DNA of 64,000 nt from Bacteroidales bacterium UBA3696 (lineage in GTDB: Bacteria; Bacteroidota; Bacteroidia; Bacteroidales; Paludibacteraceae): contig DFIN01000001.1 in assembly GCA_002372135.1 (NCBI GenBank), positions 478 through 64,477 of the forward strand, in the 5' to 3' direction. Of this stretch, positions 5,171-59,606 are shown piece by piece (the first letter of the stretch is position 1; the number at the start of each line of letters is the position of its first letter). The position numbers and the translations under genes are program-made. Below the pieces are notes generated by a model, which saw nothing but the letters and a program-made list of their open reading frames with translations, searched no databases and had not been told where the DNA came from.

Positions 5171-5206
5171 AAGCGTATAGTTTTTATGGTTGTGTATTGT
5201 GTGTGC

Positions 5207-5250: not shown

Positions 5251-5273
5251 AGGTCGTTTTGTACTTTCGATTG

Positions 5274-5705: not shown

Positions 5706-5772
5706 ATTTATGACTCTTCTAAAATCCTATGCAAAGGTACAGCCTTTTTCCCTATATGCAAGAAAAATTTAC

Positions 5773-5873
5773 GAGTTTAAGCCAAAATAGATGATTTTTG
5801 TACAACTTTGGCTGAAACTGTTTTATGAGTTTAAGCCAAAACAAATGAATTTTATACTACTTTGGCTGAAACT
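5773..5873. repeat. two tandem 47-bp units (54-bp period), each an imperfect 13-bp inverted repeat
   Basis: GAGTTTAAGCCAAAATAGATGATTTTTGTACAACTTTGGCTGAAACT (5773-5819) and GAGTTTAAGCCAAAACAAATGAATTTTATACTACTTTGGCTGAAACT (5827-5873). Confidence 0.85.
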
Positions 5874-5944
5874 CATGCTTCTTTTAAGGTAATCCAATAT
5901 GTCAAAGGTCGTTTTGGGTGCTGTTTGCAACCCGTCTTTTGTAC

Positions 5945-5970
5945 CCCTGCGGGAAACCAATCCCGCAGGG
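5945..5970 (-). terminator. hairpin downstream of the 6007 stop (weak terminator candidate)
   Basis: CCCTGCGGGA-aaccaa-TCCCGCAGGG, 10-bp perfect stem. No clear U-run. Confidence 0.3.
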
Positions 5971-6006
5971 CTAATTATATTAGTGCTTAATACACTAACA
6001 TGTGCA

Positions 6007-8076: not shown

Positions 8077-8174
8077 GAATTTCGCCGCAAAGGTAATGAT
8101 ATATTTGGATTAAAATGCAAAAAGTAGAAAGTACTTTGTTTTTAGATTAAGTAATCTATTAGATGTCGGGTTGG

Positions 8175-18980: not shown

Positions 18981-19991
18981 ATGTCTCTTTTGCATAAACT
19001 ATTCTGCTTGGAAATCGTTGCTGTCGCTCTTTGCGCGTGTGAGGAGATGTTTTACCACGAAGTGGATTTTCGCGTGGAAGGCGGTCAGCCTAAGTTGGTG
19101 CTTCTGGCTGAGAGCAGGGTAGGGAATATACCCGCTTATCAGGTTACTCATACCAAACTGCTGGATGAAAATACCGGCTCGCAACCGTATTATTTATTGA
19201 TGGATGCCGATGTGCGCTTTCGCCGTAACGGCGGTGAATGGATTCGGCTTTATACGCTGAATGATACGAGTATCTATTGCCTGACCGAAAACGGCGCATT
19301 GCCCCCCGCTATTGGTCCGTTGGATACCATCGAGTTGAAAGTGTCTCATCCCGATTATCCTTCGCTCTACGCAAGGCAAGTGATGCCCGATTATGCCTAT
19401 GCCACTCTCACGCAATACGAAAAGCAGGACAACAATTCGGTACTTCTAACCCTGCATATTGAACCCTATCGTGGCAATGCGGACGATATGATTGCCATTC
19501 GTTCGCAGATGTGGAATGTGTATTCCGTGGACTCCGTATTCGCCAAGGCGCAAAACATGCAAGCCGGTGCCTACTACGGCGCTGACGAAACGTACAGCCT
19601 CTTTTTTCCGGCGGCGTTGTTGTCTCGTTCGTTGGATATACAACTCTTTGCAGATGGAGGAAAGCCCTTTTATACAGAAACGGATACAATCTTCCTGACT
19701 CCGAGAAATCTGAGTCTGACCTGCTCGGTTCTTACTCGCGACGGGTACTTGAATGAACTTTTCCGGCGCACTTATACCCAAACCGAATTGGATGTGCCGA
19801 GTTGGGTACCTCGGCAGAGTGGCAACTGGATGCAAATCATCTTGGAAGGGGTTACCGAAACTTTAGGACAACAGGAATTGCTGTCCGTCTATACCAACGT
19901 TGAGGGCGGGTTAGGCTATCTGTTCGGATGGAGTTCAATGCCTGTCGGCTGTCCGAATACGTTGTACCATGTACCTTCACGCAGGATGTAA
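18981..19991 (+). CDS. DUF4249-like lipoprotein (receptor partner)
   Basis: Lipobox VALCAC. The position immediately after a CarboxypepD_reg-type TonB receptor is typical of DUF4249. C-terminal EGGLGYLFGW. Confidence 0.65.
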   Translation: MSLLHKLFCLEIVAVALCACEEMFYHEVDFRVEGGQPKLVLLAESRVGNIPAYQVTHTKLLDENTGSQPYYLLMDADVRFRRNGGEWIRLYTLNDTSIYCLTENGALPPAIGPLDTIELKVSHPDYPSLYARQVMPDYAYATLTQYEKQDNNSVLLTLHIEPYRGNADDMIAIRSQMWNVYSVDSVFAKAQNMQAGAYYGADETYSLFFPAALLSRSLDIQLFADGGKPFYTETDTIFLTPRNLSLTCSVLTRDGYLNELFRRTYTQTELDVPSWVPRQSGNWMQIILEGVTETLGQQELLSVYTNVEGGLGYLFGWSSMPVGCPNTLYHVPSRRM

Positions 19992-22900
19992 AGCATACCG
20001 TTTTCCATCACTTTACGTACTGACCGATCGTCGGTTGACACAGCCTCGTGATCGGTAGGCGTCTGCGGACGGAATACCAATCTGGCAGGCGTACCACGAC
20101 GAACACTCATATAGCCGGTCTTAGGCACTTGGAAGTAGGCACGGAAACCACGGAGCGGATTGGTCGTATTGGGCCATAACAAGGTGTTGCCATCGCTCAC
20201 AAAGAGGTTGTCATGGTCATAATAAGCCATCTGAACGCGGCATACGTTGCCCACAAACTGAATTCCATCACCTATCGATTGACCGGCATCCGTGGTAATG
20301 GTCACGTTGTTGAATACTAAGTCGGTTAGCACTTCGCCCGTATTGTCCCATTTAATCAGATAGGGTACACCTGCTTCGATGGCGGTAACGGGAGTCATAT
20401 AGATGTCCAACTGCTTGTCCCCCAACTTGACTGCGCCATCGTAGGCGAATAACTGACATCCTGCCAACGGAGAGACGGCTATCTCAGCCTCCGACATACT
20501 GAATGGCAGACACAGCGTATTGAAACTACCGTCCTTGTAGAGCGTGCGCTCTATATGAAGGTTCGGCACGGTCACATTCAGCAGCGGAGTGAAGAACTCA
20601 GTAATCTGCATACTGGTCTCGCTGATGGTGAGCGTACTCTTAGAGCCGGTGGCTGTTCCGCCGTCGGTGTCCAAACGCTTGGCGCGAGGTGCTATGCGGA
20701 TATAAGCAGGGCGGACGGGAGCACCTGCGGGAGAAACCACCATGGCAGACGACACATGGAGGGTCAGTTGCTCACCAGCCTTTTTGCCTTCTAATAATAT
20801 ACCGCGAAAAGGAGGCAGCAGTATAGGCTCGGCATCGGTGGTTACATCGTGGTTAAAACTCGTCTCTGTCCATTTGGACGGAGCGGTAGCCGTTCCGTCA
20901 GGCTCGTAGTAGTACTTGCCTGTGAGTTGATCCGTATTGTCCGCCACCAAGCGGGCTATGTCTATGTAGCCGAAAGTGGGATTGCCAAATAGATAGACAC
21001 CCTCATACTGCTCGTTGAGCGTGAAGGTCGTGTTGCCCGTGAATGCCGGTTTGCCGTAGTCTTCGTCGCGAACGATGAACTCGCTTTCATCCAACCATTG
21101 GGCTGCCAAGCCGTCGTAGTAGTTATACATGTTGTCCACCTGGCAAACGAATCACGGGGGCAGGCGAACCGGCGGCACAATCTATTCCAATCATGCTGGC
21201 ATCACCCGGATGCATGGGACGGGTCAGCGTATTGGTGGCGCGAAGCCACAAGTCATTGGCAGCGTCGTATTCGGAGTTATACACCTCATAGGTATAGCGG
21301 TCGTCAGCATCAGTGCCAGCAATCTGGCGAATAGTCGCCACGGTGAACGGGTCGCTGCCCTCCCACTGCGAGGCAAACACATCGCCGCTGACTATCCCCT
21401 TCAAGGGAACGGATGCCAGAGTCCAACGCTCTGCATTTAGCGGCATATCCACAAAGGCCTGTCCATTGATATTCACCTGTTCTTGCCCTGCCATAGACGC
21501 TCCTGCGGGCAGGTATAGGTGGTGGCACTTGTTCTTAGTATAGTTGAAGTCATACGACTCAACAGCATCGTTCACAAACGTAACCGCATAGTCCTTAGGA
21601 AGCATCACCACATCGGTTTCTTCCATAGGAATAAACGAACTCCAGTTGGCATCTTGATTCCATTCGCCCCCCAACCATGTTACCACATCGGGGACGATGC
21701 GCAAAGTGAAATAGGTATAACCTCTATCGCACTTATCGTCTGCGCTTTCGCCGATGAAAGCGATGTGGAAAGTATAGTCGTATCCGGCAGCCAGGGAGGC
21801 GAGTCTCGCGCCGGAGAGAGTGATGGTATCCACTACATCGATGATTGCCTTGTTAGAGTTCAAGCGTATGGAACGCCATCTCGGGCAGGTAGAGGAAACG
21901 ATATAGATACTGTCCACTTCGTAGTGTTCGCCCGGATCGCCTTTGAGATAAAGGGGCAGGTCGAACGAGCCTCTGCGTTTCTGCGCGTCCGATATACGGA
22001 CGATACGCGGGCGACCGGCTACCACTTCGGGCAGCACTTCTGTTTTGTTGCCGACCGCCATCATATTAGACATCGGTACAGCGGGTTTGATATGCAGGAA
22101 TCGCGGCGAGGTACAAACCTGCTTGCTGCCTGCCGAGCCTGCCAAGGGGAAGGCGGTATAACTGAGTGAGACGGCGGCTTGCATACTGATGGACGCAGTG
22201 TCCAAAGTCAATAGCCCCTGACGAACAAGCGAATTGACGCTCTCAATGGCTGAGGGCACATTGTCGCGGTAGAAAATAAGCAGTCGCTGAATCTCGTCGA
22301 AGGTATGGTGATAGACTTCGGGGTGTTCGTTCACATAGACCGAGTCGCCAATCAGCCAGTCGGCACGGCAGTGGGTGGTGTCTATCTTCAAAGGATCATA
22401 CGGGTCAGTCTCATCACGGATGATCTGCGTTAGCACGATGTTGAGTGTATAGGAACGGTGTCCGCAGACGCTGACTACTGAGTCGCCAAGAGTGATGTCG
22501 TCGTTGATGGTGATGCGCGTACCGCCTGCCACCAGCATGTCGGAAAAGGTGCCGCACCCTTCCCGCTTGCCGAGTTCATCGTGCTGCTGCGATACGAAGC
22601 CGGTATAAGCGTAGTTAGTACGCACTTCCATCGGTTGGGCAATGTAGATGACGTAGCGTTCGGTAGTGGCATCAACCCGCTCTTTGACATAGCGATACAG
22701 AGGCACTTTTGTTTCGCGGTATGCGGCATCAAAAGCCAAAAGAGATGCACTTGTCAGCCCGCTTGCCTCAATCGCTTCGTCGGTGGTGAGAATGGGTACG
22801 CAACCGAACACGGTGGAAGCACTATCCTTGTTGAAGTATTTTGACCTGATGATATTTTCACCCTCGCGCCACTGGTAGAATAGTGGTTGCCCTTCGTGTT

Positions 22901-24728
22901 CGATGGCTTGATAGTCCACGCGCAGATAGGCACGTATGGTATCGCGGGCTTTGTCAATACAGTCGGATGTCGAAGCCTGCAAGGGCATAACCGGCGGCTT
23001 CTGCACATAGATACGTATGTCGTCAAGTGCAAAGTCATTGCCTTGCGAAGAACGCGCCTTGTTCACAATCTTCAAGCGATAGGTATGGTAGTCATTGGTC
23101 TTGTCTATTTCAACAGGAAAGATTACCTGAAACCACTCTCCTGTTTTCATTATCTTTCCTCTCTGACCGGTACTATTTTTCACATTAAAACCAAACTCAC
23201 CGGTGGTAAATCGCGTGAGACGATGCTCCACACCTTCATCATCAATACCGATAACAATAAAATCCATATTCGGTGCAGAACCATCGTTTGAAGAACCTGA
23301 CAAATCAACTAACCATGCAGAGAAGTACATTTTTGACCCAGGGCATAGGTCGGTATTTACTTTTAGGCTGAAAACCTCACCCGGGATCTCCGATCCATCG
23401 CAATAAAGCATATAACCTGACTTTGCGTTGTTCTCATCGGTTTCAGCGGCCAAATCATTGTGATTATACACCCATTTGGATGTATTTGCCCAAGATGTGC
23501 GTTGGTTACAAATGCCGTATTCACCCCAATAGACATCATGCGGGTTATATGCTCTGTAAGTTTTATCATTCTTGTCTTTTGTAGAAAACTCTTTGAAATA
23601 ATAGCCGTAAGTGGATTCTTCTGGGTGTAAATGACCTGCCCACCAACTTATAACTTTGCTTTCAAATTCAGGCTTATCAAAGTTGAAGGTCTGTTCATAG
23701 AGCAGTTCCATTCCGGCAAATGTATTGTCTGTAAGGTTTGCAAGCGGACCAACCTTGTTTACATCCATATACGTTACAACAAACTGGGCTATATTGTATA
23801 TCATTGTGCCGGTATTATATTGAAGCGTATAAGTGCGTACCCCCTCAACATCACTTTTTACACCTATGTACTGCCCCGAAGCAAATAGTTCAACATTAGA
23901 CAAAGTAACAGCACTCGCACCATTATCAGACCATTGCCATTTCGACCAATCACACATCTGAACAGGGGAGTTTTTGTCATAGTAGTAACTGCTGCGTGTA
24001 GCAAACCTGTACGATTGGTTATAATTGTAGATAGTGGAATCCACTATGGCGAACTCGGGTCCGAGATATAGCTGCCTTCCTGTAGGAGCAATGATGTGGT
24101 ACGTTTCCAAATAATTTTCCGTACAGGTGTCCACACGAGCAGCAATTTCTGATGCAGGATGGAATTCATATATTAAACGATTTGACAATGTCGGTTCTAC
24201 ATAAATGATATCGTTCACATAATCTTTATAGACTGACTGGTCACATGCAAGACGGAAAACACTGTCCTGCATAGTGTATGTAACTTCCCAAAAATAAGAA
24301 GATCCGCCCTCAAACCGATAATATCCGGCAGCAGTAGAATACCTAAACCCGTATGTACTGGTATTATACTCATGGGTTGTAGTATTATAAATAGGAGCCT
24401 TTCCAACCACTTCCGTTTCTTCATAACTCAATCTGTCCGTATCATAGTTGTATCAACGTATCCAACTCTGATAGGTTCGAAAATTCGGGCGATACAGACG
24501 AATCACTTCCCCCGGCGCGGCATAAACTATACTCGTCTTGGTATGTGTTGCCTGCATGCCGTTTTCCATCAACCCGTGCGGACCGGCTTTATGCTGAAAA
24601 CTCGCTTGCGCCTGTGCCATCAAAGGGCAAAACGCAAAGACCAGCACACATACAGCCCACCGCGTCAGCCACAGCCCGATACGCGTATTATTTCCTGTGT
24701 TCACTCCTTTCATACTCCTCAAATGCAT
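19916..24728 (-). pseudogene. large (about 1600 aa) surface protein interrupted by an in-frame TGA and a 1-nt frameshift
   Basis: Track ORFs 24453-24728 (signal peptide IGLWLTRWAVCVLVFAFCPLMAQA), 21123-24431 (1102 aa, GNDFALDDIRIY lectin/MAM-like motif) and 19916-21139 (407 aa, no signal peptide, C-terminal tail). The first two share one frame, separated by TGA at 24453-24455. Confidence 0.6.
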
Positions 24729-31522: not shown

Positions 31523-31523
31523 T

Positions 31524-32988: not shown

Positions 32989-32990
32989 AG

Positions 32991-47263: not shown

Positions 47264-47293
47264 ATCGCTTCGCTGTTAGAAGTTAGAAATAAT

Positions 47294-47327
47294 TGGCACC
47301 AATCAAACGACCCTTTGATTGGTGCCA
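47294..47327. repeat. perfect palindromic site: 14-bp arm / 6-bp spacer CGACCC / 14-bp arm
   Basis: TGGCACCAATCAAA-CGACCC-TTTGATTGGTGCCA. The palindrome extends to 17 bp per arm (47291-47330). No following U-run, so it is not a canonical terminator. Confidence 0.85.
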
Positions 47328-47478
47328 ATTATTTAAGTTGAAAGAAGATGGCAAGTATGTAAGTGGAAAAATTTGAGAATTATGCAGTATTACTGTATTC
47401 AAATAGTTAGTAAATTCTCCAAAAACACCACTCAAAATGCTTGAATATAAATGAAAAATCAAAAAATGTGCATGAAAA

Positions 47479-47510
47479 TTTGGCTGTTTTTGTTTCATGT
47501 TGTAATTTTG
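47479..47510 (+). promoter_or_regulatory. candidate promoter inside the IR-flanked segment, pointing at the giant gene
   Basis: TTTG (47479-47482), 20-nt spacer, TAATTTTG (47503-47510). I found no equivalent box on the opposite strand of the segment. Confidence 0.45.
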
Positions 47511-47614
47511 CAGCCACATTAGATGTGAAGGATTGCAGTTCTGCAAATCACGAAGTGTGAATTCTTTAATACAAAAAAATGAGGGATAAGAATCCCTCAT
47601 GACCACAAAAACAG

Positions 47615-47648
47615 TGGCACCAATCAAAGGGTCGTTTTTTAGGTGCCA
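47615..47648. repeat. second site: 14-bp arm / inverted spacer GGGTCG / degenerate arm
   Basis: TGGCACCAATCAAA-GGGTCG-TTTTTTAGGTGCCA. 47615-47637 is the exact reverse complement of 47305-47327 (23 bp). The second arm matches 11/14. Confidence 0.85.
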
Positions 47649-47950
47649 CACGGGGTGCGAATATTGCCGGGGATGAATAGTCCTTTGACGTATTGGATTA
47701 CCGTAAAAATTGTATTTTTTCAACGAAAAAGTTGAAAAACGCTTATTATATCATATCGAATGTCGGCGGTCGGAATGTCTCGGGTGTTAGGATTTGGGGA
47801 TAACCAATACCGCCTTTATGAAGACGGTGAGATGTCCTCTGAAGCGATAGGCAAGATGTTATTTTCAATGGCTGCACGAGTTCTTCTCTTTCGGAGGATT
47901 TGTGAATAAAGTGGCGATGTGATAAGACGCTCGTTCAAGAGCAGAAAATG

Positions 47951-47990
47951 AAAGCGGTAATCCAATCAGTGAGCGGATTACCGCTTTTTT
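47951..47990 (+). terminator. intrinsic-terminator-like hairpin in the 5' leader of the giant gene
   Basis: AAAGCGGTAATCC-(11 nt)-GGATTACCGCTTT followed by TTT. Ends 42 nt before ATG 48033. Confidence 0.55.
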
Positions 47991-48032
47991 ATGTGCACGG
48001 TGCACGCTACTAACTCAAAAAACAATATACGT

Positions 48033-51000
48033 ATGAAAAAATTTTTCTCCTTTTGTTTGGTGATTGCCGCCGTGTTTCTGACCCTATCTCCGCAGATAGC
48101 GCGGGCGCAGTTAAATGAGTATTTTTCTATCCGAAGTACGTGGTCGGGGGCAACTACGACCATTACGTTCAACGGGAGTGTCAGTGTGGATTTGTGGTAC
48201 TCTACCGACAAGTCCAACTGGACGCAGATTACCGAGACAACCAATATCCCCACGTACAACAAAACCTATTTCAAGGGAAACAACCCGACCGGTTTCAGCA
48301 CAAGTACAACGGATTTTGTGCAGTTCTTGGCAGGAGGGACAAGTCAGGTTTACTACCTTGAGGGCAACATCATGTCGCTCATTAACGGCAATGATTTTGC
48401 GACTAATTATTCCACAATCCCGTCTGATTATTGCTTTTATTCCTTGTTTACCAATAAAGCGGGGTTGAGTAGTGGATATACAGAAACCAATTGGTATGCC
48501 GGCGATTTACTACTACCGGCGGATTATCTGACTCCGCACTGTTACGAGTCGATGTTTGAGCGAACATACGTCAAGACGCAGCCGCAACTGCCTGCGCAGC
48601 ATTTGGCGGAGTATTGCTATCATAAAATGTACTATACCAGTATGTCATTGGATATGCGTACCTCTTATCCCGCTACGCCGATAGAGTATATCCTTCCGGC
48701 GGAGGAGTTGGTGCCGCACTGCTATGAGCATATGTTCGGCATATACAACAACAATCCGACTATTTACCAATATGTAACCATTATGGCAACCTCTTTGCAA
48801 GACCGCAGAGGTGAAGATATTGAAAATTGCCTGAAAGAGATGTTCTATTATGGTGTCGCTCTTAGCTCTACATCCGGCAAATATACCAAATATTTTGTAC
48901 AACTGTTCTTTACGAATTGGGGGGATGTCAGCAAGACAACTTGTCCGACATACAACTGGTTCGGTGGAAATTATAATTGTTCCGGTAACTATTTCTTCTA
49001 TGACGCAAACCTTTCTTGGTCAGTATCTAATATTAAATTGGGATACAGCGGTATTAAATCTCAATTCCCGAATGGAGCATATAGTTGCGAAACGAACAAT
49101 TGTACGAGCTTCTGGGTGCCTGAAGATTACAACTACCTCACTTTCGACTGTAAGACCAACGGCGGCACATGGGAGGCGGATGACGACTACAACACCGACC
49201 TCCGCCGCGTGGTGCGTGCCGGCTACACTGCCAAGACGGTGCCTGCCGCTCCGCACAAGTTAGGTTGCACCTTCCTCGGCTGGTACACCGCTCCCTCTGG
49301 AGGTACGAAAGTGGATAACGCCACTATCCTCTCACAGACAACGGCGCAAACCTACTACGCGCAGTTCATACCTAACGATGTGGACTACACCATCACCATC
49401 GCCAACGGCGAACACGGACACGTAGTCGTAACGCGCAACAACGAACCGACTGCCACTTACACCACCACCTCTTCGGTGCACAATATGTCCGAACTGACTA
49501 TCACTGCCGTTCCCGATGCAGGCTACCGCTTCAAAGCATGGACAGGCGATGCCGCCACTATCAAAACAGCTGAAGACAATGGCACCACCTACTACCTTGT
49601 TAACGACATCACCGTAGGTGCCACCTTCGAAGCCGACGAATGCACCGTGACGATTAACACCCCTGCATCCAACGGTACGCTGGCTGCATCCGACGGCACG
49701 AACAACTACGCTTCGGGCAATACCTACACTTTCAACCGCCAATTAGACCTCAACAAGGTGCTGACCTTTACTGCCACACCTGCCACACACCGCCTCTTCA
49801 CAGGCTTCACGGTAACGGGTGCGGAATTGAGCAACATTACAGCAGCCCACACCCCGTATCAATATGATGATGTGGTAACGGCTCAATACACCATCACCGC
49901 CTCCACACCGGACGAGGTGACGGTAGACGCGACCTTCGTCAAACCGACCTACACAGTCTCCACGTCCATCACCGGCAAGAACGGCGGTTATGTCACCCTG
50001 ACAGCCGACGGCTATGCTGACCAGACCGGCAGCGGAACGTATGACATCGACACCCGCGTGACCCTGACCGCCACGCCGAACAACGCGATGTTCAAATTCG
50101 TCAAATGGACTGACAATGACAGCGACAACCCCGTGCGTGTCATTACAGCGCTGACTAGTGATATAGCTCTCTCAGCCGAGTTTGACTTGGAGGGCGAACT
50201 CTGGTCCGCTCCCGCTACGGTGGATGTCTATTCGTCAGGTGTCACCCCGACCTGCACTTCTACTATTACAACATCCAACTATCGCATCCTGTATAATTTG
50301 GATCCCGTTAAAGGTAGTGACAACATTACCTATACGCCTGTGGATATGGGTGCAGGTGTCGCTTGGGCGGACAAGAACATCGGTGCCACCGACCCGACCA
50401 AGGCGGGCAGTTACTTCTATTGGGGAGGCACAAAAGCCTACGGGGAAGAAGGTTATACAACGGTATCAAGTTCAAACTACTATAAAGGAGTGGCGGATAT
50501 GACGGCGACCACATCAACAGCTGTCGCCGCGCAGTATCCTTTACCCACTGAAGCTGATGCCGCAACGCAAAAGATGGGCGGGCAATGGCGTATGCCTACT
50601 TACTATGAGATGAATAATCTCATTTCTTCCACTTACACAAGTAGTGCGCAGGTTAATTATAACTATACAGTTACCAACAAGTACTACACAGACGATAAGA
50701 TTTTTATTCCTGCCGGAGGACGATATGAAACCACTTTGTCCAAAGGTGCGGCATACCTTTGGACAAGTACCGTAGCTGGTAAGAACGGAGCCAGCAGCAA
50801 ACCGTGGGTATATTATAATCACGCGATGAGAGGCAATGTTACTACCACTGGAAATTCTGTGGCTTATTATGCTCTGCCTGTCCGTGCCGTCTATGTCCCG
50901 TCGTTCGAGACCTGCACGCTGCAAGTGCTTGTCTATTGGGCATCTACGCTGAAATGGACTTACAACTACATCTGTGAGGTCGGTCAGACCGTCACCATCC

Positions 51001-54000
51001 GTCAGCATCCTGCCGCAAGCGGATACAAGTTGTCGGCTTGGAGGGAGAACACTTACTCGGGTACCGAACTCTCCACGGACAATAGTTATACTGTGACGCT
51101 TACAGGGAACCAGACGATAGCGGCGCATTACATCTCCGCCACCACCTATCAGCTGACCACCAAAGCCTCTCCGCTCAAGGGCGGAACGGTGGATGGCGGT
51201 GGTTATTACCCAACCGGTACAAGCGTTACGCTTACCGCCACACCGAATGCCAACTACCGCTTTGTGCGCTGGTCGGACGGCAATACCGACAATCCGCGTA
51301 CTTACACTACCACAAACGCGGCTGTTACGCTTACGGCGGAGTTTGAAGGCTATGTGACGGGCGTTACATCCTCTACAGCCAACGTGGATGTGTTCGCTTA
51401 CACCGCTAACACCAACTGCTACAAGATTCTCTACGACCTGCCATCAGAGGTGAACGGCTACCGTCCTGTGGATATGGGTAATGGCGTGGCCTGGGCTAAC
51501 AAGAACCTCGGTGCAGCCGATAGTACGGCTTCGGGCAACTACTATGTCTGGGGCACGACCTCTCCGTTCACATCGGTGGCCACAGGCACTTATTATGCAG
51601 GCGCAATGGATATACCGCTGACCACCTCAACGACTCTCAGTGCGCAATATGCTTTGCCTGCCGATTCGGATGCCGCTACGGTGAATATGGGTGAGCGGTG
51701 GCGTATGCCGAATTATGCGGAAATCTATTACCTCGCCAATCCTAACGGAGCCACGGAAGCAGGTGCTGCCGCAACGGGTTTCACATATACCAACAAACTC
51801 AGTGGCGAGAAATTGTTCATTCCGGCAGCAGGTTACCATAACAAAGTTGGGAATACTCCCTCCTCAACACCTACATCCGGAACGTACTTCTGGGGTAGCA
51901 CGGTTGGAAAATTCAATGCCAACGGCTATCAGTGTGTAGCTTCCTGCTATCAAAGCGGTGGGGCGTTGTATAACAATACAACATACGGATATGTGTATTA
52001 CGCCATGCCTGTCCGTGCTGTCTATGTGCCGCCGTTCGAGACCTGCACGCTGAAAGTAACCGTGACAGGTCTTAACCAGGTAGGCAACGGCACAAGCACC
52101 TATTACTATTATTATATCTGCGAAGTAGGTCAGCGCATTCGTATCACCGCGCAACCGCACTCCGTGGGTTCTACGGGCTTTACCTACGCCTTCACGCAGT
52201 GGACCGATGATGACAATAGCAGTGCCGTGGTGGGGACGGACCCGACTCTCGACTTCGTCATCGCGGGCAACACCAACTACACCGCCACTTTTGCTTCCAC
52301 CACCAATTTCTCCACCATTCACGCTTTGCCACAACCCCGCTCCGGCGGATATGTCTATGGCGTAGGGCGTTATAAGAATGGCGTTACTACGCGGCTGCAC
52401 GCTGTGCCGGAAGAGGGCTGGACTTTCGTCCGCTGGGAGGACAACAACTCTACCAACCCCTACCGTGAGATAACCGTCAATGGCGATGCATCCTACAATG
52501 CCGTCTTCACCTCTGCCGTACCCGCTGCGGCTTCGGCACACAAGTACGTCAATGTATGGCACGAAGCAACCACCACCACAACGGAAACACTCTATGACGG
52601 TTCGCCCCTTGAGACTTGCACGCTGACGGTCAAGACTTATCAGTCGAATAGCGCCAAGGCTACCTACAACTTCGTTTGCGAAAAAGGACAAACCGTCACG
52701 GTGAGTGCGTTCACCAACACCGCCAACTACTCGCTCCTGCACTGGACCAATTTGGAGTACGACATAATGAGTTACGACCCGACAGTGGAGTTGGTGGTAA
52801 CGGAAGACATCACCTACATCGCTACGTTCTATACCACGCGTGCAACGACCCGTACACTGACGCTTGACTGTACGCCGCGAGAGGGAGCAATTTTTGATGG
52901 TGCTATTAAGGGGAACACCAACCATATCGGCGTGTATGAGGACGGTCAGGTGACCAAACTTGTCTGCCATCCGAATCCGCACTACCGCTTCCTCTATTGG
53001 GACGATGACCACTCGCTGACTGACACGGCGCGTATCGTCACTGTAACGGAGGATAGGACATATACCGCTGTATTGGAGATGGATTATGACCTCACTACCG
53101 TACATTCCGAGGATGCTTTCGCGCAGGTTTATCAAGGCGGTACTTATCAGGGTACGTACCTGCGTTACGCCCTGCCGGGCTATGATGCCAACGGCTACCG
53201 CCCCGTGGATGTGGGTGTCGGTGTGGCATGGGCGAACAAGAACATCGGAGCCGCTGACAGCACCAAGGCGGGCGACTATTTTGTCTGGGGTCTTACCACT
53301 CCCGCCACTACGGTCAGCAGCAGCGGAACCAACTACTGGACGGGTGTCACCTCAATGTCCTCAACCCTGACTTCAAGCAACACAGCTGTGCAGTATCCGC
53401 TTCCCGCCGCCAATGATGCCGCAACGCAGATTATGGGCGAGCGGTGGCGTATGGCGACTTATCAGGAGATATACAATCTGGCTAATGTGACAGGCAGCGG
53501 TTCCACCGAGGAAGGCCAGGCATCAGCAGGATTCAGATATACCAACAAGGAGGACAATTCGCAGTTCATCTTTATCCCTGCAGCCGGATGCAAGAAGACA
53601 TCGGGTACGGAAACGGTAACAACCGGTACAACCCACTTCTGGGGCAGCACGGTCAAGTCTGTCAGTGCCGCTTCATCCCAGCCTACATACTACTTGAATG
53701 GCGGTTGTTCAGCGGGTTCCACCACTTACTATGCATGGAACGCCATGCCAATCCGCGCCGTCTATGTGCCGCCGTTCCAGACCTGCTCCGTAACGGTGAA
53801 GACTCCTACCAATCAGTATATGTACATCTGCGAGGTAGGTCAGCGCATCACCATCACCGCTTTCTATGGGGCTGCCACGGCAACCAGTCAGAATTATCGT
53901 GTGCGTGACTGGATAGACCAGAACAATGTCATTGTTTCCACCGACCAGACCTATTCCTTCATCGCTCTGTCGAATGTGACACTGACAGTGAATTTTGTCG

Positions 54001-57000
54001 CTCCCACTACGAAACGCACGCTTACCTTCAATGTGTCGCCTGCCGGAACAGGTACAGTGAACAACCTTGCGACTTTTGTCGGCAACTATGAGGACGGTCA
54101 GCATGTGCGTATTCCCGTGAAGGCTGCGGAGAACTACCGCTTCTCGCATTGGTCGGACGATGAAAACAACACCGATCCGAATCGTATCTTCACTGCCACA
54201 GCCAATGCTACTTACACCGCAGTCTTCGAACCCGATGAAGCACAAGCCGCTGACGCACACATAGCACAGGCTGCCACTCGTGACACAACGAAGATTCTCT
54301 ATCCGCTGCCCGTATTGACGAAGAACAATATGTTCTATACGCCGGTGGATATGGGTACGGGTACCGCTTGGTGCGACTACAATGTGGGCGTTACCAATCC
54401 GACCAGTCCTAACGGATATTATTTCCTTTGGGGTGGAAATGCCAACAAGACTTCCACCTATAAGACAACCACTTACACATCAGGAGCAGTTACAAATACC
54501 ACAGAAGGCGGCGATTTGCCATACAACACCACTTACGATGCCGCTTTGTATCAAATGGGTACAGGTTGGCGCGTACCGAGTAAAGAGCAGTGGGATGCCC
54601 TTGTGGATAAGTGCTCAACGGAAACAGAGAACACTTTTGTCAATCCTACGGATGCTACTAAGTCCATCACCTTGCCTAAGGCGGGTTCGTATGCACCGAA
54701 TACCACATCCAATTATAGCACGCTATCCAATAATCCTGCTTTAGCAGCCTATTGGAGTCGCACTTTGGCTCATAAAGACAATACGGCATACAATAGTCAG
54801 CCGTGGTGCTATCTTGACGGAGAAGTGAAGTATGGCGCGGATATACCTATATCAGGTCGTCAAGGTTATGTCAGCTACGGTATGCCTGTCCGTGCCGTCT
54901 ATCAACCTTCGTTCACGCCTTGCACGCTCACCGTGCGTTACACCAACGATGAGGAAGTAACCCGCACCAATACCTATCTCTGCCAGCCCGGACAGCCCGT
55001 CCGCATCACAGCCATTCCGTCAGAAGGCTATGTCTTCAAGAAATGGAACGACAACGATACGCACGCCGAGCGCACTATCTTCATCTCTGAAGATATGACC
55101 CTCACCGCCGAGTTCGAGGAAGCCAATGCAGGTTCCGCTCTGATTATCACGCAGGTGAACAACGGCGAGTGGGGTAGTGTAACCGGCGGCGGCGAATATG
55201 ATAAAGGTGCTGCCGTGACGCTGACCGCACAACCCGAAGAGCATTACCACTTCGTTAAGTGGCAACTCAACGATGCGGACATAGTGGGCGGTGCCACGCT
55301 TAATTTCACCGCGACCGCTATCGCCACCTACAAGGCGTTCTTCGCCATTGACGAGCATACCCTCACCACAACCGCGACGAACGGAACGGTAACAGGCGGC
55401 GGTACCTACGACTACGGCACCACAGGCGTTACGCTAACTGCCACAGCCGACGACCATTACCACTTCGTCAAATGGCAACTCAACGGCGAGGACATACCGG
55501 GCGAAGCCTCCCTCACGGTGGACGTAACTGCCGATGCAACTTATAATGCCGTCTTCGCTATCGACCGCCATACGCTTTCCGTCACCGCTACCAACGGAAC
55601 GGCAACCGGCAGTGGCGAGTATGACTACGGCACCGTGGTAACGCTCGGCGTGACACCCGACGAACACTACCATTTCGTTTCGTGGTCGGACGACGGCGCA
55701 CAGAGCCACAGCGTAACCGTAACCGCTGATGCCGAATACACGGCAACCTGCTCTATTGACCGCTTCACGCTGACCGTCAACGGCTCGAACGCCACTGTCA
55801 CAGGTGCGGGCGAGTACGACTACAACACGCAGGTAACGGTTACCGTCTCGCCCGATATGGGCTATAACTTCGTCCGCTGGACCGACGGTGAGACCAACCC
55901 GTCGCGCATCGTAACAATGACGGAGAACAAGACGCTTGCTTATGAGACCGTTTATGTGCCTTCGTATGCGATTACGACCGTAGCCAACGGCGGTGTTATT
56001 TATCAGACAGCTGACCGCTACGAACAGCAGAACGGTCCGACTACCTATAGTTATATGAACGGTACGGTGCTGACCCTTGAGGTGGCTGCTTCCTTCGGCT
56101 ATGCGTTCACGGGCTGGTCAGATGGCAACAGCGACAACCCGCGTGTCGTAACCGTGACGGAGGCAAAGACCTACACCGCCGAGTTCGACGAGCAGACGCA
56201 TATCGTGTTCCATAAGACCACGGGTGTATTGGACTTCCCGACCTATGCGAAGAACACGTTTGCCGTTATAGGCGAGACAGACGATGTGACGTTCCGTCTG
56301 TACTTCAATACGGCTATCAGCACCAACAAGACCGACTACCTGTCGAACCTCTCGCTCGATGCTTCGCAGTCGTATATTCAACCTACGGTAGGAGCTAAAC
56401 GCACCATCGCTTCCGCGACCGTAGCGAATGTAGAATACTTCGGAAATCAGATTCGTGCGGCACACCTTACGGCAATGCTGACTGACACGGAAGGCAGAAC
56501 ATACGATGTGGATATCTATACCAATGAGATGATTAACTATGCCACCTATCAAGAAGATTATACGTATAAGTATTATTCGTCTTATTTGTCCACAGAGTCA
56601 AGTTGGGTAAGCGGTCGCACGCTATTCAAGGCAGGTGAAGAAAACAACTTCCCGCTGAATATAGTCAATGCCAACTACCATACCTTGGGTTATTGGTACA
56701 GCATTGCAGGTTCGTCCGCATACGATATTATCAATATCAAGTTGCAGTTTATAACGGACGAAAGCAAGCCCGGTGTTGTGCCGACAGGAGTTTATCCTAT
56801 CAATAGCACGCAACAACCCGGTACGGCTTTCATTGGTGTGATACCGTCTAACTACATAGAGCGTCAAACCAATAACAATGCATTGAACTATGGCTGTGTA
56901 GTCTTCCGGGATTACCACGACCAAAGCACCTATGTGCGTACAACAGACAACTGGACGCTGCGCGGCGGATATATTGAGGTAGTCAATGTGGACGAACAGT

Positions 57001-59606
57001 ACTATGTTCACGTTCACGCCACTGCTGACGCTTATCGCACCAACGGAGAAGCCGCCAATACATTGTTAGACTTCACTTTGGGTGGTAGCGGCAATAATGA
57101 CGTGCCGCAACCTGTTGCCATTACGCTTTCCGCACAAACCGTAGGTGGCGAGGCACTGACCGATGCCGTTACGGCTACCCTTGCAGGCGCAAGCAACTGG
57201 ACGGATGTCGAGATAGGTCAAGGCAGTCACACTTTCTTTAGCGGCAATACGCTCAACCTGACCGCCGCCAAACCCGGCTATGTGTTCAGCCATTGGACCG
57301 TAAACGGCATCACCGTGGCGGGCGAGGATTACACCTACGCTTATACGGTAGGCGCAGCCGATGCCGCCATCGTAGCCGTCTTCGAGTTGGATACCCGTCC
57401 GTTCTACACCATCGCTGCCGAGACAGGCGGTCGCGGTACGGCAACGCTCACGGCAGACGGCTACAAGCCGCAGACCGGCAGCGGCTATTATGCCGAGAAC
57501 ACCAACGTAACGATAACCGTTGCAGCCGGTACGGGGGCTACCTTCCTCGGCTGGGACGACAATAACGACGGCACGGTTGACAACACGCAGAACCCGCGCA
57601 CCGTTACCGCTACGGCAGACAAGACCTATACGGCAGTCTTCGGTCTCGAATCGGCTGACCAAGCAGTCAATGTCTATCAGGCGGCTGCGGCAGACACCAC
57701 CAAGATTCTCTATAACCTCGACCCGAAGACAGGTGCTGACGGACTGACCTACCAACCCGTGGATATGGGTTACGGCGTGGCTTGGGCAGACCGCAATGTG
57801 GGTGCAAATCAGCCGACCAATGTAGGTAAGTATTTCTATTGGGGCGATACCGAAGGACATACGTCGTTTAATGCCTATCAGGCTTTGAACACGAGTAGTT
57901 ATACTTCGGGTACGACCTTGACACCTGATTTGGATGCTGCCACGCAACAGATAGGAACGGCTTGGCGTATGCCGACAGATGAAGAGTGGCTCGATTTGAG
58001 AAAAAACACCACCCAATCGGCTGATCACGGTACATTTATGAATAAAACCTATGCAGGAAATACCATTTATTTGCCCGCGAGCGGATTCTATGGTACAACG
58101 TATAGGAATTTGTATCTATATGGCGATGAGGGTCCGTGGACTTCTAAATTATTTACTAACTACCGTTTCTATTGGTCAAGTGTTTATTTCGTGCAGAATG
58201 CTTCTAATGGTCTTGCTTTCCCATATACGTTTGAAGATGTCGAAGCCGATGCTAACAACTACTATCATGTCAATACAAACGTAACGCTCAACAGCACATC
58301 CTACGGCTTCTTCGACTGTTTCGGTATGCCTGTCCGCGCTATCTACGAACCTGAATATCCGACTTATACGCTGACTATCAAGGTTGGCGGGCAGCAGTAC
58401 AAGTACATCTGCCAAGCCGGTCAGAACATCACTGTAACCGCCAATGCCACCACTGAAGGTTATGTCTTCGACGAATGGAAGATGGAAGACGGTACCACCA
58501 CCGATGAGACGGATACCCACCTTGCTACCCGCACGTTCACGATGACCGGTAACATCACCCGCACTGCCACCTTCAAGGAGGGGCAGTCAACCTTCACCGT
58601 TACATGGAAGAACGCAGACGGTACGACCCTCGAAACGGATGAACAGGTAGAAGCAGGTGCTACGCCTGCTTACGATGGCGAAACACCCGCTAAGGTGTCC
58701 GACGAGACGTATTACTACACCTTCGTAGGTTGGACCGATGGAGTTACCGACTATGCCGCTGACGAGGCTCTGCCTGCCGTAACCGGCGATGTTACCTATA
58801 CAGCCCGTTTCCAAGCCTACTTACGTGAACTCCTGCTCTTGGATTCGGAGGATGCAGACTATTACGACAATATCCGTCTGCTGAACGGTCAGCACTTCGA
58901 GCAAATCACCTATCGTCGCTCCGTGGCATACACCAAGGACGACAACGGCAATGCACGTTGGTACACGCTCACCCTGCCTTTCAATGCAGACCAAAGCCAA
59001 TTAGCAACCAACGGGCTGCTCCGCAAGGTCTATGAATACCGCTATGCCGAAGGTTCGGCGGACGAGAACGACCATGTTACCTTCCACTTCCGCGCTGCCA
59101 CCTCTATCATAGCCGGACGTGGTTATCTGGTCAAAGCCACTTCGCTTATGCCTACCGACTATGCCTTCGCGGATGTTACACTCGATACGGGTAAGGATAC
59201 AGAAACGGATGTCAATAAACTCAAATACAATTCCGCTAACGCTTACAAAGAGAGTGGCGATATAGCCATCGTGGGTGTATTGCGCCACGGCACATTGAGT
59301 CAAGACGGACGCAAAGTGATGGGCTTGGCAAACAATAAGATTTGGTATCCGCACACGAATGGTAACCCCATGCCTGCTTACCGCGCGTACTTCTACAACC
59401 CCAATGCTACCAAGAATATACCTCGTGTACGCATTGTAGTAGAGGGTGAAGGAGAGACCGAGTTGGAAGTAGTGGATGGCGAACTCTATGATGCAGGCGG
59501 GGACGACCGCGCTCCCGGCAACAATGTGCGCAAGTACATGGAGAACGGCATTCTTATCATTGAGCGCAACGGCGAACGCTTCAACGCACAAGGAAAGAGG
59601 CTATAG
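48033..59606 (+). CDS. giant (3857 aa) modular surface protein: signal peptide, degenerate LRR region, InlB-B repeats, five FISUMP/DUF1566-like modules, shared C-terminal domain and tail
   Basis: MKKFFSFCLVIAAVFLTLSPQIARAQ. LP..L...CY..MF repeats. Many G/HY.F..W repeats. Five Y.PVDMG.GVAWA.KN.G...WRMP...E...L...FIPAAG...PVRAVY modules. Tail is VRKYMENGILIIERNGERFNAQGKRL. Uninterrupted 11.6-kb ORF. Confidence 0.9.
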   Translation: MKKFFSFCLVIAAVFLTLSPQIARAQLNEYFSIRSTWSGATTTITFNGSVSVDLWYSTDKSNWTQITETTNIPTYNKTYFKGNNPTGFSTSTTDFVQFLAGGTSQVYYLEGNIMSLINGNDFATNYSTIPSDYCFYSLFTNKAGLSSGYTETNWYAGDLLLPADYLTPHCYESMFERTYVKTQPQLPAQHLAEYCYHKMYYTSMSLDMRTSYPATPIEYILPAEELVPHCYEHMFGIYNNNPTIYQYVTIMATSLQDRRGEDIENCLKEMFYYGVALSSTSGKYTKYFVQLFFTNWGDVSKTTCPTYNWFGGNYNCSGNYFFYDANLSWSVSNIKLGYSGIKSQFPNGAYSCETNNCTSFWVPEDYNYLTFDCKTNGGTWEADDDYNTDLRRVVRAGYTAKTVPAAPHKLGCTFLGWYTAPSGGTKVDNATILSQTTAQTYYAQFIPNDVDYTITIANGEHGHVVVTRNNEPTATYTTTSSVHNMSELTITAVPDAGYRFKAWTGDAATIKTAEDNGTTYYLVNDITVGATFEADECTVTINTPASNGTLAASDGTNNYASGNTYTFNRQLDLNKVLTFTATPATHRLFTGFTVTGAELSNITAAHTPYQYDDVVTAQYTITASTPDEVTVDATFVKPTYTVSTSITGKNGGYVTLTADGYADQTGSGTYDIDTRVTLTATPNNAMFKFVKWTDNDSDNPVRVITALTSDIALSAEFDLEGELWSAPATVDVYSSGVTPTCTSTITTSNYRILYNLDPVKGSDNITYTPVDMGAGVAWADKNIGATDPTKAGSYFYWGGTKAYGEEGYTTVSSSNYYKGVADMTATTSTAVAAQYPLPTEADAATQKMGGQWRMPTYYEMNNLISSTYTSSAQVNYNYTVTNKYYTDDKIFIPAGGRYETTLSKGAAYLWTSTVAGKNGASSKPWVYYNHAMRGNVTTTGNSVAYYALPVRAVYVPSFETCTLQVLVYWASTLKWTYNYICEVGQTVTIRQHPAASGYKLSAWRENTYSGTELSTDNSYTVTLTGNQTIAAHYISATTYQLTTKASPLKGGTVDGGGYYPTGTSVTLTATPNANYRFVRWSDGNTDNPRTYTTTNAAVTLTAEFEGYVTGVTSSTANVDVFAYTANTNCYKILYDLPSEVNGYRPVDMGNGVAWANKNLGAADSTASGNYYVWGTTSPFTSVATGTYYAGAMDIPLTTSTTLSAQYALPADSDAATVNMGERWRMPNYAEIYYLANPNGATEAGAAATGFTYTNKLSGEKLFIPAAGYHNKVGNTPSSTPTSGTYFWGSTVGKFNANGYQCVASCYQSGGALYNNTTYGYVYYAMPVRAVYVPPFETCTLKVTVTGLNQVGNGTSTYYYYYICEVGQRIRITAQPHSVGSTGFTYAFTQWTDDDNSSAVVGTDPTLDFVIAGNTNYTATFASTTNFSTIHALPQPRSGGYVYGVGRYKNGVTTRLHAVPEEGWTFVRWEDNNSTNPYREITVNGDASYNAVFTSAVPAAASAHKYVNVWHEATTTTTETLYDGSPLETCTLTVKTYQSNSAKATYNFVCEKGQTVTVSAFTNTANYSLLHWTNLEYDIMSYDPTVELVVTEDITYIATFYTTRATTRTLTLDCTPREGAIFDGAIKGNTNHIGVYEDGQVTKLVCHPNPHYRFLYWDDDHSLTDTARIVTVTEDRTYTAVLEMDYDLTTVHSEDAFAQVYQGGTYQGTYLRYALPGYDANGYRPVDVGVGVAWANKNIGAADSTKAGDYFVWGLTTPATTVSSSGTNYWTGVTSMSSTLTSSNTAVQYPLPAANDAATQIMGERWRMATYQEIYNLANVTGSGSTEEGQASAGFRYTNKEDNSQFIFIPAAGCKKTSGTETVTTGTTHFWGSTVKSVSAASSQPTYYLNGGCSAGSTTYYAWNAMPIRAVYVPPFQTCSVTVKTPTNQYMYICEVGQRITITAFYGAATATSQNYRVRDWIDQNNVIVSTDQTYSFIALSNVTLTVNFVAPTTKRTLTFNVSPAGTGTVNNLATFVGNYEDGQHVRIPVKAAENYRFSHWSDDENNTDPNRIFTATANATYTAVFEPDEAQAADAHIAQAATRDTTKILYPLPVLTKNNMFYTPVDMGTGTAWCDYNVGVTNPTSPNGYYFLWGGNANKTSTYKTTTYTSGAVTNTTEGGDLPYNTTYDAALYQMGTGWRVPSKEQWDALVDKCSTETENTFVNPTDATKSITLPKAGSYAPNTTSNYSTLSNNPALAAYWSRTLAHKDNTAYNSQPWCYLDGEVKYGADIPISGRQGYVSYGMPVRAVYQPSFTPCTLTVRYTNDEEVTRTNTYLCQPGQPVRITAIPSEGYVFKKWNDNDTHAERTIFISEDMTLTAEFEEANAGSALIITQVNNGEWGSVTGGGEYDKGAAVTLTAQPEEHYHFVKWQLNDADIVGGATLNFTATAIATYKAFFAIDEHTLTTTATNGTVTGGGTYDYGTTGVTLTATADDHYHFVKWQLNGEDIPGEASLTVDVTADATYNAVFAIDRHTLSVTATNGTATGSGEYDYGTVVTLGVTPDEHYHFVSWSDDGAQSHSVTVTADAEYTATCSIDRFTLTVNGSNATVTGAGEYDYNTQVTVTVSPDMGYNFVRWTDGETNPSRIVTMTENKTLAYETVYVPSYAITTVANGGVIYQTADRYEQQNGPTTYSYMNGTVLTLEVAASFGYAFTGWSDGNSDNPRVVTVTEAKTYTAEFDEQTHIVFHKTTGVLDFPTYAKNTFAVIGETDDVTFRLYFNTAISTNKTDYLSNLSLDASQSYIQPTVGAKRTIASATVANVEYFGNQIRAAHLTAMLTDTEGRTYDVDIYTNEMINYATYQEDYTYKYYSSYLSTESSWVSGRTLFKAGEENNFPLNIVNANYHTLGYWYSIAGSSAYDIINIKLQFITDESKPGVVPTGVYPINSTQQPGTAFIGVIPSNYIERQTNNNALNYGCVVFRDYHDQSTYVRTTDNWTLRGGYIEVVNVDEQYYVHVHATADAYRTNGEAANTLLDFTLGGSGNNDVPQPVAITLSAQTVGGEALTDAVTATLAGASNWTDVEIGQGSHTFFSGNTLNLTAAKPGYVFSHWTVNGITVAGEDYTYAYTVGAADAAIVAVFELDTRPFYTIAAETGGRGTATLTADGYKPQTGSGYYAENTNVTITVAAGTGATFLGWDDNNDGTVDNTQNPRTVTATADKTYTAVFGLESADQAVNVYQAAAADTTKILYNLDPKTGADGLTYQPVDMGYGVAWADRNVGANQPTNVGKYFYWGDTEGHTSFNAYQALNTSSYTSGTTLTPDLDAATQQIGTAWRMPTDEEWLDLRKNTTQSADHGTFMNKTYAGNTIYLPASGFYGTTYRNLYLYGDEGPWTSKLFTNYRFYWSSVYFVQNASNGLAFPYTFEDVEADANNYYHVNTNVTLNSTSYGFFDCFGMPVRAIYEPEYPTYTLTIKVGGQQYKYICQAGQNITVTANATTEGYVFDEWKMEDGTTTDETDTHLATRTFTMTGNITRTATFKEGQSTFTVTWKNADGTTLETDEQVEAGATPAYDGETPAKVSDETYYYTFVGWTDGVTDYAADEALPAVTGDVTYTARFQAYLRELLLLDSEDADYYDNIRLLNGQHFEQITYRRSVAYTKDDNGNARWYTLTLPFNADQSQLATNGLLRKVYEYRYAEGSADENDHVTFHFRAATSIIAGRGYLVKATSLMPTDYAFADVTLDTGKDTETDVNKLKYNSANAYKESGDIAIVGVLRHGTLSQDGRKVMGLANNKIWYPHTNGNPMPAYRAYFYNPNATKNIPRVRIVVEGEGETELEVVDGELYDAGGDDRAPGNNVRKYMENGILIIERNGERFNAQGKRL

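Follow-up and report, generated by a model that had tools for sequence, protein, structure and literature searches.

The 64,000-nucleotide stretch of DNA analysed here, referred to below as the window, comes from contig DFIN01000001.1 (positions 478 to 64,477 of the forward strand) of assembly GCA_002372135.1, Bacteroidales bacterium UBA3696, which is placed in the Paludibacteraceae. It contains a giant gene on the plus strand that encodes a protein of 3857 aa, preceded by a putative promoter switch and by a leader with a terminator-like hairpin. A stop-free frame spans 47991..59606, and an earlier note on this DNA was correct in describing the open reading frame (ORF) as uninterrupted, which we could verify from the ATG at 48033 to 59606. 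This ATG is the plausible start codon, reading MKKFF...ARA (MKKFFSFCLVIAAVFLTLSPQIARA, with QLNEY following the predicted cleavage site). The signal peptide listed in the earlier note is indeed present, and the mature N-terminus (QLNEYFSIRSTW) is kept in P0266, the closest homolog of the N-terminal third of the protein (83% identical). An in-frame ATG at 47991 was also considered as a start, but was rejected because it lies inside the T-run region of the terminator-like hairpin and because P0266 begins at the position equivalent to MKKFF (48033). In its own locus (contig L009:1-8380), the gene for P0266 appears to be split into overlapping ORFs; there it is preceded by a further B-repeat gene, and its promoter is of the ordinary, non-invertible kind.

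The identical giant protein was found in three independent metagenome assemblies (ERZ28612940, ERZ1756110 and ERZ12302816). DNA repeats inside the gene show 60-89% identity over at most 208 nt, and no tandem DNA repeats were detected in it. Collapse or expansion of the repeats during assembly, a risk that the earlier note had raised, was rejected as very unlikely since the repeats are divergent, none of them is tandem and the three assemblies agree.

Domain composition of the giant protein

The giant gene and the parts of its product are located as follows.

48033..59606, plus strand: giant coding sequence, stop codon included, 3857 aa
48033..48110, plus strand: signal peptide, predicted cleavage between ARA and Q, read from the sequence
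48111..49133, plus strand: N-terminal head with a cap, about three degenerate 26-aa BspA-type leucine-rich repeats (LRR) and a Cys-rich C-cap, from the alignment of homologs
49134..50189, plus strand: one Flg_new repeat, then B-repeats (aa 368-719; one divergent), from Pfam and a repeat hidden Markov model (HMM)
50205..50909, plus strand: lectin-like module 1 (DUF1566/FISUMP-like), then Cys-B repeat 50910-51137 and B-repeat 51144-51350
51351..52040, plus strand: lectin-like module 2, then Cys-B repeat 52041-52298 and B-repeat 52317-52514
52515..52835, plus strand: module without lectin core (aa 1495-1601), read from the sequence and the repeat HMM
53082..53780, plus strand: lectin-like module 3, then Cys-B repeat 53781-54002 and B-repeat 54015-54233
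54234..54917, plus strand: lectin-like module 4, then Cys-B repeat 54918-55121
55140..56192, plus strand: six tandem B-repeats (aa 2370-2720), from the repeat HMM
56193..57164, plus strand: central domain of 324 aa (aa 2721-3044)
57648..58361, plus strand: lectin-like module 5, then one-Cys B-repeat 58362-58580 and Flg_new-like repeat 58590-58817
58818..59471, plus strand: C-terminal beta-rich domain (aa 3596-3813), from the profile family and an AlphaFold (AF2) model
59517..59603, plus strand: terminal tail (aa 3829-3857), after a disordered linker, from the family alignment and AF2

The bulk of the protein consists of InlB-type B-repeats. Flg_new_2 (PF18998) matched with an E-value of 1e-124 and 407 bits over 14 stretches (gathering cutoff 23.6), while Flg_new (PF09479) and TIGR02543 scored 33.1 and 23.1 bits against cutoffs of 27 and 20.95, respectively. 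With an iterative, self-built repeat HMM we obtained 20 significant InlB-B-type repeats plus two weak ones, which bears out the earlier count of more than 20 InlB-B or Listeria-Bacteroides repeats. The run of HYHFVKW units that had been singled out corresponds to the six tandem B-repeats at aa 2370-2720.

The N-terminal head, approximately 340 aa, had no direct Pfam match even at an E-value of 1, LRR_5 (PF13306) included; an hhalign comparison of the head with LRR_5 proteins was negative (probability 0.1), and a profile search of the PDB gave a match to 4fs7 (E 0.026). A search for homologs of the head yielded 80 proteins, in which LPAxxLxxxCYxxMFxxCxxL recurs in tandem with a 26-aa period where Pfam places LRR_5. 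The degenerate repeats of the head (aa 161-236, nt 48513-48740) align repeatedly, with E-values down to 1e-60 per protein, to the tandem repeats of P0294, P0304 and P0284. The assignment as a degenerate LRR region is therefore right by transitive homology, as the homologs repeat the same segment at the Pfam LRR_5 positions.

Five lectin-like modules of about 230 aa each, bounded by the motifs PVD[MV]G.G.AW and MP[VI]RA[VI]Y, align well with one another. Summed over weak copies in the whole protein, Lcl_C (PF07603) reached 35.3 bits (cutoff 34.9), whereas single modules scored 12-21 bits (E 5e-4 to 0.25). A consensus of the modules matched Lcl_C with an E-value of 1.5e-5 and 25.7 bits (cutoff 34.9), covering the C-terminal half, and Fib_succ_major (PF09603) with an E-value of 7e-4 and 20.4 bits (cutoff 33.9). 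The curated cutoff of FISUMP (TIGR02145) was not reached either (22.5 versus 41.65 bits), and a search of PDB sequences with the module profile gave only chance matches (E>0.1), Lcl not among them. AF2 modelling of module 2 together with its Cys-B repeat, from seven sequences, had a predicted local distance difference test score (pLDDT) of 66, the lectin part being unreliable at 40-78. A Foldseek search with this model returned weak beta-grasp and adhesin-like matches only, which we attribute to the B-repeat part of the model. Hence, the five FISUMP/DUF1566-type modules of the earlier note can be located by their motifs, but their family scores are mostly below threshold and the fold model is unreliable; since the scores lie under the curated cutoffs, the modules are at best distant members of the DUF1566/FISUMP superfamily.

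The TCTL...YICE.GQ.VTI unit that follows the lectin-like modules had been taken for a separate beta-sandwich. It has no separate fold and proved to be an InlB B-repeat (Flg_new_2, E 7e-8) in which a pair of Cys residues is conserved. A sixth such Cys-B unit, absent from the earlier note, was found at aa 1528-1601. It belongs to the stretch at aa 1495-1601, in which the leader strand of a lectin-like module (..KYVNVWHEATTTTTETLYDGSPL) leads directly into the Cys-B repeat, the lectin core of this module having apparently been lost. The central domain at aa 2721-3044 had likewise been overlooked; it had no match in Pfam, NCBIfam or the PDB and a single homolog, P0267. Searches of PDB sequences with four unassigned regions of the giant protein gave nothing or chance matches.

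The inverted-repeat segment and the leader

The region between the upstream gene and the giant coding sequence contains the following features.

47287..47334, no strand: left inverted repeat, a perfect hairpin with a 21-bp stem after the CAAX-protease gene, from a repeat search
47308-47327, no strand: exact 20-nt core of the left repeat, CGACCCTTTGATTGGTGCCA, from an exact repeat search
47328..47614, no strand: putative invertible segment of 287 bp between the inverted repeats, in the ON orientation here
47479..47511, plus strand: Bacteroidetes-type promoter TTTG-N20-TAATTTTGC, facing the giant gene, from a pattern match
47579..47600, minus strand only: hairpin with a T-run, a terminator-like site
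47608..47648, no strand: right inverted repeat, core TGGCACCAATCAAAGGGTCG at 47615-47634
47635..47706, plus strand: conserved leader start, ending in element A (47685-47703)
47951..47995, plus strand: terminator-like hairpin with a 14-bp stem, -21.4 kcal/mol and a T-run (UUUUUU), about 40 nt before the start codon
Predicted OFF left junction (in-silico inversion): CCAATCAAACGACCCTTTGATTGGTGCCA joined to CTGTTTTTGTGGTC
Predicted OFF right junction (in-silico inversion): CTTAAATAAT joined to TGGCACCAATCAAAGGGTCGTTTTTT
Predicted OFF junction (in-silico inversion): left flank joined to CTGTTTTTGTGG

Both the candidate switch and the leader terminator that the earlier note had proposed are thus present in the sequence. 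The arms of the inverted repeats extend to 41 nt at 85% identity, and the exact 20-nt core occurs twice where 0.01 occurrences would be expected. The two copies are truly inverted, because their centre is asymmetric (CGACCC versus GGGTCG). The full promoter pattern, which follows the Bacteroidetes consensus TTTG/TAnnTTTG as quoted in PMC8748976, occurs nine times in the window against 0.5 expected, and comparison with the ORF coordinates placed all nine matches in intergenic positions upstream of genes. Within the 770-nt intergenic region (47264-48040), the promoter at 47479..47511 is the only TAnnTTTG site on either strand.

A search of 185,579 reference genomes (GTDB) gave no match to the 20-nt core, which was present in three JGI metagenome contigs. 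Two of these, L003 and L005, carry the same pair of repeats and the same leader, with the -7 box directed away from the leader and with the homologous A/T-rich end of the segment adjoining the opposite repeat. As judged from their sequence, L003 and L005 represent a related cassette in its OFF form. Assembly ERZ12302816 is broken at the element: its left contig (NODE_1458) ends exactly at 47327, the inner edge of the left repeat and the last base common to the ON and OFF forms, and the right contig begins at 47583; the two other assemblies are contiguous here and ON. In addition, contigs L002, L003, L004 and L008 start or stop at or in the element, L003 and L004 starting in a repeat. Because the sole promoter is flanked by inverted repeats, homologous cassettes exist in the opposite orientation and an assembly breaks at the repeat, phase variation of the giant gene is well supported in silico, and we infer that the segment can invert in this strain.

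From the right repeat, a leader of approximately 400 nt extends to the start codon, in which no Rfam family was found. Its start is conserved, L003 and L005 being 77-79% identical to it across roughly 100 nt, and a hairpin homologous to that at 47951..47995 is present at the same place in both contigs. Element A is complementary to the 5′ arm of the hairpin (47951-47968) over 13 bp; the resulting A:B duplex has a predicted energy of -19.9 kcal/mol. This alternative pairing covaries across the three loci (window, L003 and L005), with energies similar to those of the hairpin. The complementarity could serve antitermination in the RNA, or it could be another inverted-repeat pair of the DNA. The leader terminator itself is at present a candidate regulatory element, recognised from its sequence.

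The related cassettes (L003:1-1010, L005:80-1015 and L004:1-70, compared with 47287-47995 in the window) precede other kinds of genes, the identities of which were read from the translations: HEPN/MNT-like toxin-antitoxin genes in L005, YafQ/RelE-like ones in L003 and a GrpE-like ORF in L004. The toxin-antitoxin genes of L003 and L005 sit between leader element A and the hairpin. As related adhesin genes elsewhere have ordinary promoters, the unit of inverted repeats, promoter, leader and hairpin looks portable.

The C-terminal domain and tail

The last 262 aa of the giant protein had no sequence match in Pfam, NCBIfam or the PDB. An exhaustive profile search with this C-terminal module retrieved 5616 cluster representatives at E<=1e-3, 1927 of them at E<=1e-10. 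Among the 150 best listed, the proteins range from 113 to 5415 aa, and in 145 of the 149 top representatives the match ends no more than five residues from the C-terminus. Nearly all named members are from Paludibacteraceae metagenome-assembled genomes (MAGs), with several copies per genome, and the passenger domains fused to the module include LRR_5, fn3, B-repeats, Rha78A-like Ig and PhoD_N, among others. The 26-aa tail follows the consensus K-x-I-x-N-G-Q-L-x-I-x-[KR]-[ND]-G-x-x-Y-N-x-x-G-Q-x-V-K. The family formed by the C-terminal domain and tail is undescribed, being matched by no Pfam or NCBIfam model; its distribution suggests that the module could serve as a family-specific sorting or anchoring device. 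When GTDB genomes were searched with back-translated patterns of the C-terminus, no locus could be confirmed, so that the taxonomic range rests on the few named matches; looking up the clusters added no organism names. Publications relevant to the tail motifs were also looked for, and none was found.

AF2 modelling of the C-terminal module from 40 sequences was confident (pLDDT 86, predicted template modelling score 0.77) and gave a beta-rich domain (about 210 aa) that is joined by a disordered linker to a terminal tail of three strands. In a Foldseek search of the PDB, this model had no solved counterpart (best E 0.2), and against BFVD it had one match, A0A8S5QQ35, another member of the family. 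This 385-aa 'bacterial repeat domain' protein, assigned to Siphoviridae sp. ct6oU4, has the same C-terminal fold (Foldseek E 3e-6) and may be a prophage or phage copy or stem from a misassigned contig. In P0141, the C-terminal domain is located mid-protein and the tail at the end. More generally, the beta domain of P0141 and P0040 is internal or present in several partial copies, while the tail stays terminal.

Copies of the module or of its tail occur elsewhere in the window in the following genes.

19916..24728, minus strand: decayed paralog with the full C-terminal domain and tail, in-frame TGA at ~24453 and frameshift at ~21139
3727..8121, minus strand: two tandem decayed tail-bearing paralogs in several frames, tails at 3730-3830 and 6010-6150, promoter at 8121-8087

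The presence of a shared C-terminal domain and tail was confirmed by the second full copy at 19919-21151 on the minus strand. The tail alone, without the domain, was found at 6010-6411 and 3730-4569 (both minus strand), and a weak copy of it (E 0.003; ..NKVLLDGKVLIKKNNQLYTLTGYEIQ) ends the 323-aa Cthe_2159 protein at 9610-10581, which is intact. The layout of P0141, together with these three genes of the window that have the tail alone, indicates that domain and tail are two separable modules. The decayed paralogs of the earlier note are real; on the minus strand, 19916-24728 is disrupted by a TGA and a frameshift, and 3700-8100 is spread over multiple frames. Its statement that the giant gene is the only uninterrupted tail-bearing member needs qualifying: the three large paralogs are indeed broken, but the Cthe_2159 protein at 9610-10581 is intact and has the weak tail. 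The 1600-aa paralog is interrupted by one TGA (..YQSWIR-stop-YNYDTD.., 24440-24460, minus strand) plus the frameshift at ~21139, and from its sequence this damage seems recent and minimal rather than extensive decay.

The ORF at 1609-2886 on the minus strand (425 aa) ends in a canonical C-terminus of the type IX secretion system (T9SS) kind (Por_Secre_tail, PF18962, E 7e-4; ...LPIGVYMVRVAGVKGASKVVKSH). For this reason a type IX secretion system is probably encoded in the genome, in addition to the different tail that the giant protein bears. The T9SS sorting models TIGR04183, TIGR04131 and PF18962 matched neither the giant protein nor any of 40 family members, and the last 68 aa of the giant protein had no family match even at an E-value of 1.

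The giant locus is flanked by housekeeping genes, namely iPGM and the CAAX protease upstream and, downstream, a tRNA, a SpoU methylase, a cytidylyltransferase-like gene (NadD-like by translation reading) and ApbE. Further away on the plus strand, three Cthe_2159 carbohydrate-binding-domain proteins are encoded around VTC, DUF4956 and DUF2490 genes (9610-16023), and a HipA-type toxin gene (HipA_C, Couple_hipA) lies at 26065-27860, where the small ORF 26065-26376 before it resembles an XRE-type helix-turn-helix regulator by translation reading. The translations of the run at 27892-34154 (plus strand) resemble an AMP-dependent ligase, carrier proteins, a FabH-like ketosynthase, a short-chain dehydrogenase and an acetyltransferase. 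With a GC content of 0.40-0.43, lower than in the rest of the window, this run may be an acquired lipid or glycan-modification cluster.

A proposed switchable surface fibre and its relation to known systems

The reading that we favour, and consider somewhat more probable than not, is that of a giant Sec-exported surface fibre of Paludibacteraceae-like Bacteroidales, the expression of which would be set by promoter inversion. The N-terminal LRR head would be positioned at the far end of the fibre, about 22 small InlB-B (beta-grasp) repeats would form a stalk that carries the five lectin-like modules at intervals, and the C-terminal beta domain and 26-aa tail would be cell-proximal, acting as a sorting or anchoring module. 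Expression would be toggled by site-specific inversion of the 287-bp promoter segment between the inverted repeats, the recombinase responsible being encoded at another place in the genome. The promoter reads into the gene in the orientation that was sequenced, which would correspond to ON. After inversion the promoter would read away, and the minus-strand hairpin with its T-run (47579..47600) would then face the plus strand and block read-through from upstream. Transcripts would also have to pass the hairpin 40 nt before the start codon, where pairing of element A with the 5′ arm may cause antitermination.

It is reasonable to infer that this fibre is an adhesin or binds glycans, since the recognisable domains are of kinds known from surface adhesins (BspA-type LRR, InlB B-repeats and DUF1566/FISUMP). 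The view of the earlier note, a phase-variable adhesin or glycan-binding fibre, is supported with regard to phase variation by the comparison of sequences, while the binding is plausible from domain homology only. Several observations weigh against the reading that we favour. All three full assemblies of the locus are ON, so that for the giant gene itself one state was seen; no recombinase was found among the scanned ORFs of the 64-kb window; and the upstream regions of three homologous adhesin genes have ordinary promoters and no switch. Little full-length mRNA might be produced, given the strong terminator immediately ahead of the start codon. Moreover, the lectin-like modules remain under the Pfam and NCBIfam thresholds, except for the summed whole-protein score of Lcl_C, the unreliable module-2 model gave no lectin match in Foldseek, and the C-terminal module matches no known sorting domain.

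The same architecture and regulation would also suit a different target, namely plant or microbial polysaccharides, or other cells in aggregation, rather than a host. We regard such a substrate-binding fibre, which would function as FISUMP-domain surface proteins do in fibre-degrading bacteria, as a possible but clearly less probable alternative: the lectin-like modules match both Lcl_C and Fib_succ_major/FISUMP, the closest relatives belong to MAGs of Paludibacteraceae that come from gut or rumen-type metagenomes, and three Cthe_2159 carbohydrate-binding proteins are encoded in the same window, but FISUMP scored far under its cutoff. Conversely, the repeats might not form a switch at all if the left one merely served the CAAX-protease gene as its terminator hairpin, the right one were a second copy of a dispersed palindrome and the promoter were fixed in place. 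Each arm is by itself a hairpin, palindromes alone can disturb an assembly, and the single orientation of the complete assemblies and the result of the recombinase scan would fit this explanation. Nevertheless, the asymmetric loop shows a true inversion of the copies, the repeats of L003 and L005 bracket a promoter-bearing segment with its homologous end on the other side, and the ERZ12302816 contig stops at the exact base where ON and OFF diverge, which makes a fixed promoter improbable. Global invertases encoded elsewhere in the genome are known in Bacteroides.

With respect to the C-terminal module, a divergent T9SS cargo signal, by which the type IX secretion system would export the protein and fix it to the surface as it does its other cargo, appears rather unlikely. 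It would be in line with the canonical T9SS-type C-terminus of ORF 1609-2886 (minus strand) in the same genome and with a distribution like that of T9SS sorting domains (C-terminal position, many paralogs, varied passengers). However, 0 of the 40 family members matched the three sorting models, the last 68 aa remained unmatched, no solved T9SS sorting domain was among the Foldseek matches, and no PorP/SprF-like gene follows the giant gene. Only tentatively do we propose instead that the module is an undescribed sorting or anchoring signal of thousands of surface proteins in Paludibacteraceae and other Bacteroidales, parallel to the T9SS domains, and that the unit of inverted repeats, promoter, leader and hairpin is a portable inversion and attenuation cassette. 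Finally, the giant gene could be a silent relic like its neighbours, open by chance or only recently silenced in its transcription by the leader terminator. The window contains three broken paralogs, a terminator-like hairpin is located directly before the start codon and the gene of the closest homolog in L009 appears split, yet chance cannot keep 3857 codons free of stops, three independent samples have the identical sequence and a good promoter is present in the ON orientation. This possibility is therefore highly improbable, and a fibre under an invertible promoter is the reading that we retain.

In gut Bacteroidales, the control of giant repetitive surface proteins by invertible promoters is a known route of surface variation, and the giant protein is a further example, from an uncultured lineage of rumen or gut type. 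Both the undescribed C-terminal domain with its tail and the inversion-plus-hairpin cassette merit attention, the former being the more useful outcome: it comprises more than 5600 clusters, has a confident model with no PDB match and no family model, and marks a whole class of surface proteins.

The giant protein resembles the InlB B-repeat giant surface proteins of Bacteroidales (PF18998, PF09479), as 20-22 such repeats make up its bulk and the NCBI name of its closest relatives is 'InlB B-repeat-containing protein [Paludibacteraceae bacterium]'. It differs from them in its size, in the regular alternation with five lectin-like modules, in the Cys pair of the repeat after each of modules 1-4 (one Cys after module 5), and in its orphan central domain and undescribed C-terminal module. 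With BspA-type LRR proteins, such as BspA of Tannerella forsythia, it has in common a head that is homologous to the cap and 26-aa repeat of LRR_5 proteins, many of which bear the same C-terminal domain and tail; in contrast to them, it has only about three degenerate repeats and no direct LRR_5 match. BspA ends in a T9SS sorting domain, whereas the giant protein does not. The SprB-type giant T9SS adhesins of Flavobacteriia are likewise very large, repetitive Bacteroidota surface proteins with a dedicated C-terminal module, but the protein described here has no match to a type B sorting domain, no adjacent PorP/SprF-like gene and another type of repeat.

With Lcl/DUF1566 and FISUMP proteins, the lectin-like modules share the motifs WRMPT..E, PAAG, [YF]W[ST]ST and PVRAVY, and the weak family matches fall on the C-terminal half of each module. 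In Legionella Lcl, the DUF1566 domain adopts a C-type-lectin-like fold, through which the protein binds sulphated glycosaminoglycans (PMC11162425). Unlike these domains, the modules of the giant protein score below the cutoffs, measure about 230 aa with a long N-terminal extension and are present in five copies per chain rather than as a single trimerising head.

Invertible promoters that drive surface molecules are established in Bacteroidales (PMC7641763, PMC4611039). As in the Bacteroidales invertons of capsules, fimbriae and the BT1927 S-layer, inverted repeats here bracket a promoter segment of about 290 bp before the gene of a surface protein. The present element differs from those invertons in that its repeat sequence has no match in reference genomes and no invertase gene is adjacent, and in that the cassette adds a conserved leader and a terminator-like hairpin and also precedes toxin-antitoxin genes. 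With its conserved leader and possible antiterminator, this switch cassette would offer a testable case of two-layer control, in which DNA inversion is combined with attenuation.

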